Below, piece after piece: positions 28,430 through 50,609 of a stretch of 64,000 nucleotides of DNA; position 1 is the stretch's first letter; each line of letters begins with the position of its first letter. The position numbers were made by a program, and so were the translations under genes. Below the pieces are notes generated by a model. The model ran no database searches. It saw only the letters and a list, made by a program, of their open reading frames with translations, and had not been told where the DNA came from. This DNA comes from Escherichia coli (GTDB lineage Bacteria; Pseudomonadota; Gammaproteobacteria; Enterobacterales; Enterobacteriaceae), in the NCBI RefSeq assembly GCF_016026235.1, contig NZ_CP065613.1. The stretch is one strand, 5' to 3'.

Positions 28430-29047
28430 TATTCTGCTCCAATTGTGATGTTTGTTGTTTTAACCCTTTGCAGTGGGTTGTCGCTGCCTGACCTTTTTTG
28501 TTTTTTGCCCGGTCGGGTCAACGTTATGAGGTGGGGATGCCGTACTAATTAACATCAGTGTAACAGTGCGGATCCTCCATAAAATGCCCCTCGTGACCTA
28601 CAATCTGTCAACAGAATGTGAAAACGTCAATACAGCCAACCGGGATTTACACCAACGGTGAGAATCCACAAACAAAGATTAAAAAAACTTCAAACAGCTA
28701 TTTGCAGCAGAGAAATTTGTGCTACTCCAACATGACCAGAACAATCAGCTTAATATTTAGCAACATTTGGTGATTAAGTTTTATGCATTTAATGAAAAAA
28801 ATCTGAGGAAAAGGTGGATATCTGAGCGATTAATACCATGAACGCTAAAACGCACAGCGGAAAATGCCAGCGCCAGCCATAAGTAACGCAAAAAAAGATT
28901 TAAGCAAATATAAAAAAAGACAATGGTTTCTGTCACAAATCCGTTAATGGATAGTGAGATATGGGGCGCAAATTTGGCAGGGAAATGTGTGGTGTGTAGG
29001 TCGAATAAGGCGGTCGCGCCGCATCCGACAATAAGTGCGGTGCCGTT

Positions 29048-29083
29048 GCCTGATGCGACGCTGACGCGTCTTATCAGGCCTAC
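29048..29083. repeat. REP (repetitive extragenic palindrome) element
   Basis: GCCTGATGCGACGCTGACGCGTCTTATCAGGCCTAC, a canonical enterobacterial REP palindrome. Confidence 0.7.
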
Positions 29084-29172: not shown

Positions 29173-29249
<77 letters not shown>

Positions 29250-47661: not shown

Positions 47662-47874
47662 ATGTCCGGTAAAATGACTGGTATCGTAAAATGGTTCAAC
47701 GCTGACAAAGGCTTCGGCTTCATCACTCCTGACGATGGCTCTAAAGACGTGTTCGTACACTTCTCTGCTATCCAGAACGATGGTTACAAATCTCTGGACG
47801 AAGGTCAGAAAGTGTCCTTCACCATCGAAAGCGGCGCTAAAGGCCCGGCAGCTGGTAACGTAACCAGCCTGTAA
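47662..47874 (+). CDS. cspA: Major cold-shock protein CspA
   Basis: 70-aa [73 protein letters not shown], which matches CspA as I recall it. Confidence 0.97.
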
Positions 47875-47901
47875 TCTCTGCTTAAAAGCACAGAATCTAA
47901 G

Positions 47902-47931
47902 ATCCCTGCCATTTGGCGGGGATTTTTTTAT
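47902..47931 (+). terminator. cspA rho-independent terminator
   Basis: Hairpin ATCCCTGCC-ATTT-GGCGGGGAT (one G·U pair) followed by TTTTTTTA. Confidence 0.7.
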
Positions 47932-48061
47932 TTGTTTTTCAGGAAATAAATAATCGATCGCGTAATAAAATCTAGTATTATTTTTGTGAAAAATAAATTT
48001 GGGTGCAATGAGAATGCGCAACGCCGTAAGAAAGGCGGGAATAACTTCCCGCCGAAGACTC

Positions 48062-48214
48062 TTACTCTTTTAAATTGCAGGCTAAAAATGCCGCCAGCTC
48101 ATAACTCCCCTGTTTAATATGCAATTCACACAGTGAATCTCTTATCATCCAGGTGAAAAATAAAAGCGTGAAACAAATCACTATTAAAGAAAGTAATCTA
48201 TATTTCTGCGGCAT
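48062..48214 (-). CDS. hokA: Hok-family type I toxin (HokA)
   Basis: 50-aa peptide MPQKYRLLSLIVICFTLLFFTWMIRDSLCELHIKQGSYELAAFLACNLKE (ATG verified at 48212-48214); the ORF-track 70-aa entry is an in-frame upstream extension. No IS element nearby. Confidence 0.85.
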   Translation of the reverse strand: MPQKYRLLSLIVICFTLLFFTWMIRDSLCELHIKQGSYELAAFLACNLKE

Positions 48215-48502
48215 TCCCAGCCCCCTGTGTTGATTTCCAACGAGTAAGAGGCTAACCTTATGGTGTTCAGGCATAGGGTAGCCTCACTTTGATTTATAGT
48301 CAGGTGGGGCTTTTCTCTGTCTGCCTTTCGGTGAATACCTGAGACAAACAGTCTCAAGCACCCGTGGCTATTCTAGCTTAATAAGTTTGTTTCTTCTCCT
48401 TGATATAATCCTAAAAAAACCTCATAAAATTAATATATGAGATAATCTTTATTCAGCAGAAGATTATTAAAGGTTGCTGTATTATTTAGCGATAATAAAA
48501 AA

Positions 48503-48527
48503 AGCCTGCCAGATGGCAGGCTTTTTA
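48503..48527. terminator. glyS rho-independent terminator (bidirectional hairpin)
   Basis: AGCCTGCC-AGAT-GGCAGGCT flanked by A-run and T-run, 13-20 bp downstream of the glyS stop. Confidence 0.7.
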
Positions 48528-48539
48528 ATAACGGCGTTA

Positions 48540-50609
48540 TTACTGCAACAGCGAAATATCCGCAACGCGCAGGAACAGTTCGCGCAGTTTCTCCAGCATG
48601 GTCAGACGGTTGATACGCAATTCTTTGTCATCAACCATTACCATCACTTTATCGAAGAAAGCATCAACCGGTTCACGCAGCTCAGCCAGTTCGACCAGCG
48701 CATCCTGGTAACGACCTTCCGCAAAGTACGGCTCCAGCTTGTCACGTAGCACCACAACCTGCATCGCCAGTTTAATTTCTTCCGGCTCTTTCAGGGTAGA
48801 GGCATTCACGCGATCGCTCAGCACTTCGTCAGATTTCGCCAAAATGTTGGAGACACGCTTGTTCGCCGCCGCCAGTGCAGCAGCTGCTTCAAGGGTACGG
48901 AAGTGCGATACCGCTTTCATGCGGGCATCGAAATCAGCCGGACGAGTCGGACGACGCGCCAGTACCGCCTGGATGGTGTCAACGGTATAACCTTCGTCCT
49001 GATACCAGGCGCGGAAGCGACCGAGCATAAAGTCGATAACATCATCAACTACGTTGGCATTAGTCAGCTTATCGCCATACAGACGCACCGCTTCTTCGGT
49101 TAGCGTTTGCAGATCAAGGTTGAGGTTCTTCTCAACGATAATTCGCAGCACGCCAAGTGCGGCACGACGCAGCGCAAACGGGTCTTTGTCGCCTTTCGGA
49201 TGCTGACCGATACCGAAGATACCCGCCAGAGTATCCATCTTATCAGCAATCGCCAGCGCACAAGCTACCGGGTTGGACGGCAGGTCATCACCGGCAAAGC
49301 GCGGCTGATACTGCTCATTCAGCGCGACGGCTACGTCTTCCGCTTCGCCATCGTGACGCGCGTAGTGCATCCCCATAACGCCCTGGGTGTCGGTGAACTC
49401 GAAGACCATGTTGGTCATCAGGTCACACTTAGACAGCAGGCCCGCACGGGTTGCGTGGTTAACGTCAGCGCCAATCTGTTCGGCGATCCAGCCAGCCAGC
49501 GCCTGGATGCGGTCAGTCTTGTCACGCAGCGTACCCAGCTGTTGCTGGAACAGCACGGTTTGCAGGCGCGGCAGGTTATCTTCCAGACGTTTTTTGCGGT
49601 CGGTGTTGAAGAAGAACTCGGCATCAGCCAGACGTGGACGAACGACTTTCTCGTTACCAGAGATAATTTGCTGCGGATCTTTCGATTCGATGTTGGCAAC
49701 GAAGATAAAGTTCGGCAGCAGTTTGCCGTCGTTCGCATACACCGGGAAGTACTTCTGGTCACCTTTCATGGTGTAAACCAGGGCTTCAGCCGGCACCGCG
49801 AGGAATTTCTCTTCAAATTTCGCGGTTAGAACGACCGGCCACTCCACCAGCGAAGCCACTTCTTCCAGCAGGCTTTCGCTTAAGTCAGCGTTACCGCCAA
49901 TCTTACGCGCTGCTTCTTCGGCATCGGCTTTAATCTTCGCTTTACGTTCTTCGTAATCGGCGATGACTTTCCCGCGCTCACGCAGAATTTCCGGATACTG
50001 ATCGGCGTTGTCGATGGTGAATTCCGGTTCGCCCATAAAGCGGTGGCCGCGAATCACGCGATCGGACTGAATGCCCAGAATGGTTGCCGGAATGACTTTG
50101 TCGCCCAGCAGCAGGGTCACGGTGTGCACCGGACGCACGAAGTGCACGTCGCTTGCACCCCAGCGCATCAGTTTCGGAATCGGCAGTTTCGCCAGCGAAG
50201 TCGCAACCATATTCGGCAGCAGTGCTTCGGTGCTTTCGCCCTTCACGTGGGCGCGATACAGCAGCCATTCGCCTTTATCGGTAGTCAGACGCTCAGCCTG
50301 GTCAACGGTAATACCGCAACCACGCGCCCAACCTTCTGCCGCTTTGCTCGGTTTGCCTTCAGCGTCGAACGCCTGGGCAATCGCCGGGCCGCGTTTTTCG
50401 ATTTCACGATCCGGTTGCGCTTCCGCCAGGTTAGCTACTTTCAGCGCCAGACGACGCGGAGCAGCAAACCATTGAACGGTGCCGTGTGCGAGGCCTGCGT
50501 TATCCAGCTCCGCAGTAAAGTTCGCAGCAAAGGACTCTGCCAGGCTGCGCAGTGCTTTTGGTGGCAGCTCTTCAGTGCCGATTTCCACCAGAAAAGTTTT
50601 CTCAGACAT
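48540..50609 (-). CDS. glyS: Glycine--tRNA ligase beta subunit
   Basis: 689-aa ORF matching GlyS. Confidence 0.95.

Follow-up and report, generated by a model that had tools for sequence, protein, structure and literature searches.

Does a hokA locus that carries no insertion sequence (IS) represent an unusual state in Escherichia coli, and could such a locus be a functional chromosomal hok/sok module? The question was raised by an earlier note on the window, by which we mean the whole 64,000-nucleotide stretch of DNA that was analysed. The note had remarked on the absence of an IS beside hokA and had proposed a functional module, provided that the flanking regulatory RNA elements were intact. 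We have computed the ORFs, family matches, element positions, two folds, conservation and IS polymorphism of the locus. The window very probably holds an ancestral, uninterrupted chromosomal hokA/mokA/sokA type I toxin-antitoxin allele, for which a mechanism of the plasmid R1 type is the most likely one.

The hokA coding region and its flanks

The hokA/sokA interval comprises ~570 bp between the cspA and glyS terminators (47932-48502). On one side are the cspA CDS (47662-47874), the cspA terminator hairpin (47899-47926) and a match to the Rfam model of the cspA thermoregulator (RF01766, 47502-47929); on the other side are the glyS CDS (50609..48540, with its stop at 48540) and the glyS terminator (48499-48526). 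The HokA ORF, MPQKYRLLSLIVICFTLLFFTWMIRDSLCELHIKQGSYELAAFLACNLKE, consists of 50 amino acids and a stop codon and is located at 48214..48062 on the minus strand; the earlier note had correctly reported it, leaving the strand unstated. O104:H4 and E. coli C share one and the same RefSeq HokA protein, WP_001135738.1. HokA matches the Pfam family HOK_GEF (PF01848) with 81.9 bits (cutoff 22, E=2.3e-23) and, at about 50 amino acids, is a small hydrophobic toxin of the Hok/Gef type. The region 48363..48212 matches the whole of the Rfam model RF01794 (124.9 bits, gathering score 59, E ~1e-28), which is named "sok" but is written in the hok-leader sense.

The longest stop-free stretch in the interval, 73 codons, is mok/hok itself. 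The mokA ORF (70 codons, 48274..48062, minus strand) contains the hokA ORF in the same frame, and the mokA product would therefore be an N-terminally extended HokA. From its sequence, mokA appears to be an overlapping upstream frame with its own Shine-Dalgarno (SD) sequence, as GAGG is found 4 nt before the ATG and the frame is open into hokA. No IS element is present within 47930-48500, and the interval is collinear from end to end with IS-free genomes, in agreement with what had been claimed for the flanks between the two terminators.

Several other features were noticed close to the locus. The CDS at 47662-47874 encodes CspA (the homolog of K-12 b3556, with the cspA thermoregulator leader), and the PGAP label for the identical protein WP_000014594.1 is "cspE" in many RefSeq genomes. 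Opposite the 3′ end of hokA, on the plus strand, is a small ORF (48014-48073) for which RefSeq gives a hypothetical protein of 19 aa, WP_212591412.1; this homolog of K-12 ysaE (23 aa) is shorter in the window allele. An extended -10-like motif, TGATATAAT (48402-48410, plus strand), lies upstream of the hokA promoter and divergent from it, and aims at the bidirectional glyS terminator ~110 nt away. The end of that terminator is covered by a sub-threshold Rfam match to STnc370 (38 bits, gathering score 54) at 48462-48532. The motif and this match could reflect either a small transcript or chance; the sub-threshold Rfam matches at both terminators (STnc370 and leader families) were treated as terminator look-alikes.

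Two further RNA loci are found elsewhere in the window. Three tandem ldr/rdl type I toxin-antitoxin units occupy 19895-21103, with Rfam rdlD matches at 20051-20116, 20534-20599 and 21017-21082 on the plus strand, each opposite a minus-strand ORF with the 35-aa Ldr sequence MTLAELGMAFWHDLAAPVIAGILASMIVNWLNKRK at its end; in E. coli C, this locus shows a single ldrD. A match to naRNA4 (RF02564, 66.9 bits) at 28999-29080 on the plus strand is located beside a tRNA gene on the minus strand (29176-29249), which is tRNA-Pro by synteny with E. coli C.

Element map of the hokA mRNA and the sokA antisense gene

A putative hokA -10 box, TAGAAT (48375..48370, minus strand), can be read from the sequence 7 nt before the presumed +1 at 48363, and the -35 position is occupied by GAGAAG, a poor match to the consensus. 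The full-length hokA mRNA would be ~374 nt long (47990..48363, minus strand). We infer its 5′ end from the start of the Rfam match and from homology with the R1 +1, and its 3′ end, a few nucleotides past the fold-back element, is placed solely by analogy with R1; no obvious intrinsic terminator was seen at this 3′ end.

Numbered from +1, all on the minus strand, the mRNA begins with the translational activator tac at its 5′ end (GGGUGCUUGAGA, nt 1-12, 48363..48352) and is predicted to form an early metastable hairpin at nt 8-24 (48356..48340). The ucb, or anti-SD box, was assigned from its pairing in the folds (AAAGCCCCAC, nt 51-60, 48313..48304). It is followed by the mok SD GAGG (nt 79-82, 48285..48282), the mok AUG (nt 90-92, 48274..48272) and dcb (UUAGCCUC, nt 109-116, 48255..48248), the last of which was taken from the Rfam consensus helix. 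The dcb is complementary to the mok SD region GAGGCUA and overlaps the sokA -10 box on the opposite strand. Further downstream are an SD-like AGGGGG for hok (nt 138-143, 48226..48221), the hok AUG (nt 150-152, 48214..48212) and the hok stop codon (nt 300-302, 48064..48062). Past the coding region, a terminator-like match consists of the GC-rich 3′ hairpin GGCGGGAAGUUAUUCCCGCC followed by UUUCUU (nt 311-330, 48053..48034). By analogy with R1, where a hairpin is found at the truncated end (PMC9841398), this hairpin is predicted to form the 3′ end of the processed hokA mRNA. The fold-back inhibitory element, fbi (UCUCAUUGCACCC, nt 351-363, 48013..48001), is complementary to tac.

A putative sokA promoter is located on the plus strand at 48230..48258 and consists of a -35 box TTGATT (48230-48235), a 17-nt spacer and a -10 box TAACCT (48253-48258). 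In an alignment anchored by the invariant block GTAAGAGGC, it falls exactly on the sok promoter of R1 (TTGCGC, 17 nt, TATCCT). The sokA promoter is unchanged in 7 E. coli alleles, and the sok promoter of Klebsiella has the same geometry, with TACTCT. It scores 7/12 matches in a generic scan, the same as the R1 sok promoter. Neither the hokA nor the sokA promoter was picked up by the generic sigma-70 scan; both were retained as putative assignments because the two promoters are aligned with those of R1 and are conserved.

The predicted SokA RNA is ~55 nt long (48265..48320, plus strand, with a presumed 5′ end) and would begin with a 5′ tail over the mok ATG, to be followed by a long hairpin (48281-48310) and then by a U tract. 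The complementarity of this RNA to the region where mok translation starts is complete, and its fold has a free energy of -27.6 kcal/mol (z = -4.6). The predicted 3′ end is also where the annotated sokA pseudogene of K-12 ends; the sok target has been given as 52 bp (PMC3562002). These features point to a cis-encoded antisense Sok gene, the expression of which, like the 3′ processing of the hokA mRNA, we infer.

Predicted folding and the switch on 3′ truncation

The full-length 374-nt hokA RNA has a minimum free energy (MFE) of -139.8 kcal/mol (z = -8.3 versus shuffled sequences). In this predicted structure, tac (nt 1-12) is base-paired with fbi (nt 351-363), and the mok SD is sequestered by pairing with ucb. 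An R1-type hok mRNA folded likewise shows the same full-length architecture. The fbi is the best 3′ partner of the mRNA 5′ end (duplex ΔG of -18.9 kcal/mol), and the long-range tac/fbi pairing is predicted in both the MFE and the consensus structures. Once the hokA RNA is truncated past the 3′ hairpin (48363..48028), tac and ucb form a stem in the MFE structure, in which the SD-ucb helix is no longer present. In silico, the truncation would thus convert an SD-closed form into an SD-open form, as expected of a ucb/dcb switch, and a tac/ucb switch on 3′ truncation is the published activation switch (PMC9841398).

Complementarity between tac and fbi is found in 9 of the 9 hok loci examined, and the pairing covaries between subfamilies: GAGA/UCUC in hokA, GAGG/CCUC in the hokD type and GGCGC/GCGCC in R1. 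The consensus fold of seven sequences (six E. coli alleles and the Klebsiella ortholog) has the same architecture throughout. Compensatory pairs make up 4 of 126 in this fold, two of them in the 3′ hairpin (in Klebsiella); covariation among hokA orthologs is sparse because the sequences are 79-100% identical.

It is also evident that the hokA locus and R1 hok/sok (parB) share the order of their elements, namely a weak hok promoter, tac, ucb, mok SD, dcb, hok, 3′ hairpin and fbi. In both, the promoter of the antisense Sok overlaps dcb. Their predicted full-length folds agree, and hokA too is predicted to switch its fold on truncation (PMC9841398). The two systems differ in several respects. R1 Hok and HokA have the family motif in common but are clearly diverged in sequence, and mok is in frame with hok in the hokA locus whereas it is out of frame in R1. 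Unlike R1, hokA is chromosomal and reportedly does not stabilise plasmids; post-segregational killing, for its part, defines the plasmid systems and not membership in the hok/sok family. Among the chromosomal relatives, hokC/sokC (gef) and hokB/sokB have leaders homologous to that of hokA, with an identical 5′ end, GGGTGCTTGAG, and share with it the theme of IS disruption, but they differ from hokA in chromosomal site and in toxin sequence. Both cysteines are directly encoded in HokA, whereas hokB, hokC, hokD and hokE partly need A-to-I editing (bioRxiv 10.1101/2025.08.07.668861; PMC12214031).

Conservation of the locus in E. coli and Klebsiella

In the published genome of E. coli C (NZ_CP020543.1), hokA/sokA is found at the same position (cspA-hokA-glyS), without an IS and with an identical HokA. 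The E. coli C DNA is the same as that of the window over 48019-48387, which covers the -10 box, tac, ucb, mok, sok, hok and the 3′ hairpin. Between the promoter and fbi, the two differ at a single place, 48018-19 in the 3′ UTR spacer, where a substitution and a 1-nt indel are found (GCGCAA versus GC-TAA). Two further substitutions are located 3′ of fbi (47991 and 47977), and a few differences lie upstream of the hokA promoter.

Among six diverse E. coli alleles, the sok promoter, the mok ATG, tac, ucb, dcb and the 3′ hairpin are invariant. The -10 box TAGAAT is replaced by TGGAAT in two E. coli alleles and is kept in Klebsiella. Klebsiella pneumoniae has a syntenic glyS-hokA ortholog (~79% identical), which retains the -10 box, the 5′ end, the in-frame mok, the sok promoter geometry and fbi. 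Since this ortholog is collinear, the locus must be old and the arrangement in the window ancestral. Comparison of the window with six other E. coli alleles, E. coli C and Klebsiella revealed no inactivating point mutations, neither in the sok promoter nor in the hok translation signals, where the earlier note had expected that disruptive changes would speak against an intact module. The mok, sok and fold-back elements, which that note had left unlocated, could all be placed and appear to be intact, with a predicted fold similar to that of R1.

One B2-like allele, KE21, was found to carry several changes in these elements (alignment columns 119, 256, 452 and 465). One nucleotide is missing immediately upstream of the hok ATG, so that mok and hok are in different frames, and a G-to-A change in fbi abolishes the C6-G pair. 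The best 5′-3′ duplex in KE21 is weaker, with a shifted partner (ΔG of -13.8 versus -18.9 kcal/mol).

IS150 alleles and the frequency of the uninterrupted state

K-12 MG1655 has the same gene and the same flanks, and its HokA differs at 2 residues (G35E and N47K). In agreement with the earlier note, an IS150 accompanies hokA there: the order is cspA, ysaE, hokA, a mokA pseudogene, IS150 (3720633-3722075), a 35-nt sokA pseudogene and glyS. The 3′ part of sokA and the 5′ part of the hokA leader are kept to the right of IS150, which parts hokA from its promoter, unlike in the window. The K-12-type IS150 is 1,443 bp long and replaces 39 bp of the window sequence (48247-48285), with the left junction after 48246 and the right junction at ~48286. 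With these 39 bp, the allele has lost the -10 box of sokA and the 5′ end of Sok as well as the ATG and SD of mok. Alignment with the window shows no target-site duplication at the K-12-type IS150. On this sequence comparison, the K-12-type allele is not a simple insertion, and either a deletion next to the element or recombination between two copies of IS150 is implied. An IS150 together with a 39-bp deletion and without a target-site duplication indicates that the window represents the undisturbed state.

A second class of IS150 alleles is independent of the K-12 type; the element is in the opposite orientation and has a clean 3-bp duplication, CTT (48287-48289). Both target sites are unoccupied in the window (48246..48289, with the K-12-type site at 48246/~48286 and the second at CTT 48287-48289), and the window is collinear across both insertion points, so it is not an IS-inactivated allele of the K-12 type.

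We then asked how common the uninterrupted state is. The uninterrupted 151-bp core (48190-48340) was found in 2,789 of 5,424 complete E. coli genomes (51%), including UTI89, O157:H7, O111 and O104:H4; a longer, 681-bp query gave a similar figure, with 2,830 genomes uninterrupted. The K-12-type junction is present in 1,662 complete E. coli genomes (~31%) and the second IS150 junction in up to 1,145 (~20%); added together, the three classes slightly exceed the number of genomes, as the second junction also occurs elsewhere in some genomes, including on plasmids. In one strain, an IS1 is located between cspA and the hokA 3′ end. The IS-free state is therefore that of the majority. It had also been described earlier, in E. 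coli C, the ECOR strains and AIEC NRG857c (PMC7337300, PMC7232551, PMC3562002), the last of which was noted as IS-free in PMC7232551. As the majority state, the ancestral state judged by Klebsiella, and one already on record, the absence of an IS does not deserve the attention that the earlier note had given it. It is K-12 that is the atypical reference at hokA, so the lack of the K-12 insertion is no signal. The locus itself is ordinary and already known: intact hokA/sokA outside K-12 has been known since 1999, when it was cloned and tested, and is routinely annotated by RefSeq.

Recurrence of IS150-family elements in hok leaders

The junction of the second class (…GCCTCACTT/TGTACTGACCCC…) is found not only in ~20% of E. 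coli genomes but also, as an exact match, in Klebsiella pneumoniae strain 176. Strain 176 carries ISKpn8 at the junction, an element with 94.7% identity to IS150 over 1,444 bp. Sixty bp further on in Klebsiella, at the equivalent of the sok -35 box, is an ISKpn28 (IS481-like), and the two elements enclose 65 bp of the Klebsiella hokA leader (mRNA nt 73-137). The whole set, ISKpn8, leader fragment and ISKpn28, recurs on several plasmids of Klebsiella, which looks as though the composite had left the chromosomal hokA site.

A related insertion has been observed in laboratory-evolved E. coli B, where IS150 was found at 16,972 in hokC in three lineages (PMC5419217). The REL606 position 16,972 aligns within 1-2 nt of the second-class site in hokA. 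Another entry in the table of that paper, REL606 1,272,468 given as trg/mokB, falls in chaB, probably because columns were shifted, so only the hokC sites were used. Taken at the level of aligned sequences, these results suggest that one homologous position in hok leaders, in the region of the Sok hairpin and the mok SD, may be a target hot spot for IS150-family elements. A stronger reading, that the hokA leader is a specific target of this family and that the intact locus is a selectively maintained module, recurrently switched off by site-directed insertion, strikes us as doubtful. Recurrent IS150 insertions at hok/ldr have already been published; the identity of the site across genera may not have been.

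Mechanism and the question of function

In R1, the mRNA undergoes 3′ exonucleolytic processing and the Sok-mRNA duplex is cleaved by RNase III (PMC9841398). If the same mechanism, which we take from the R1 literature, operates at hokA, the weak promoter would give rise to the ~374-nt mRNA, in which tac would pair with fbi and ucb would hide the mok SD. This closed mRNA would be translationally inert and would not bind Sok. Slow trimming of the 3′ end to the GC hairpin would strip fbi, upon which tac would shift to ucb and the mok SD and ATG would become exposed. The constitutive, unstable SokA would then pair with the exposed mok region, leading to decay of the hokA mRNA; without SokA, translation of mok would drive the synthesis of HokA, a membrane-depolarising peptide.

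What is known of function comes from the literature. According to the citation in PMC3562002, hokA/sokA was characterised from E. coli C by Pedersen and Gerdes in 1999. A preprint that cites this study (bioRxiv 10.1101/2025.08.07.668861) states that E. coli C hokA gave no post-segregational killing and no activation by rifampicin, and PMC7337300 likewise speaks of post-segregational killing as not having been obtained with E. coli C hokA. Chromosomal hok mRNAs are also said to be translated poorly in vitro (PMC7337300). Given the negative tests in E. coli C and the poor translation in vitro, the last step, the release of the toxin, may therefore not occur, and the module is probably kept silent under laboratory conditions. 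Of the earlier proposal of a functional hok/sok module, the part that concerns structure holds, as the elements are there and the module appears to be structurally intact; the part that concerns function is not supported, as structure by itself does not prove function and killing was reportedly not seen with the near-identical E. coli C allele.

The same results from E. coli C raise the possibility that the locus is structurally complete but functionally dead, a relic with a weak promoter, poor translation signals or over-stable folds, and we consider this quite possible, at somewhat less than an even chance. Besides the reported lack of post-segregational killing and of rifampicin activation in a near-identical allele, the poor hokA -35 hexamer and the tolerance of IS disruption in about half of E. 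coli would fit such a relic. A relic would be expected to decay, however, and the conservation of the promoters, start codons, tac, ucb, dcb, fbi and the ORF between Escherichia and Klebsiella, at ~79% identity, argues against it. The HokA coding sequence is moreover toxic on overexpression (bioRxiv 10.1101/2025.08.07.668861), and a chromosomal copy of R1 hok becomes lethal once the Sok promoter is removed (PMC9841398), which indicates that a single-copy hok locus is able to kill. The opposite possibility, an active and beneficial module that serves persistence, growth arrest or phage defence and responds to another trigger, with IS150 as a recurrent off-switch, seems unlikely to us. It would account for the retention of the locus beside glyS in two genera with all RNA elements conserved, and for the recurrence of IS150-family insertions at one leader position; translational activation may also need signals yet to be identified (PMC7337300), and induction of hokB by (p)ppGpp has been reported (PMC12214031). 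Yet about half of E. coli genomes have no working copy of hokA and no known phenotype, and IS150 insertions in hok/ldr during laboratory evolution were classed as inactivating redundant functions (PMC5419217). An effectively inert locus and an active one with another trigger are both compatible with the ancestral, uninterrupted hokA/mokA/sokA allele as the explanation of the sequence.

A different alternative concerns the origin of the IS-free state, which might be secondary if an ancestral IS150 had been lost by excision and the site repaired. The occupied alleles are indeed very common (1,662 genomes with the K-12 junction and up to 1,145 with the second junction), but no duplicated CTT or other scar is found at 48287-48289, and the window is collinear with the alleles of E. 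coli C, B2, O157 and Klebsiella. Nor could excision from a K-12-type allele restore the 39 bp (48247-48285) that are missing there. With these 39 bp held in the window and no footprint left, we have rejected an origin by excision as highly improbable.

The ancestral, uninterrupted allele, with an R1-type mechanism, thus remains our preferred explanation of the locus. The present analysis provides a coordinate map of every hokA/sokA regulatory element, and the population figures (~51% intact, ~31% K-12-type and ~20% at the second site) could be useful for testing whether single-copy chromosomal hok loci are really silent.
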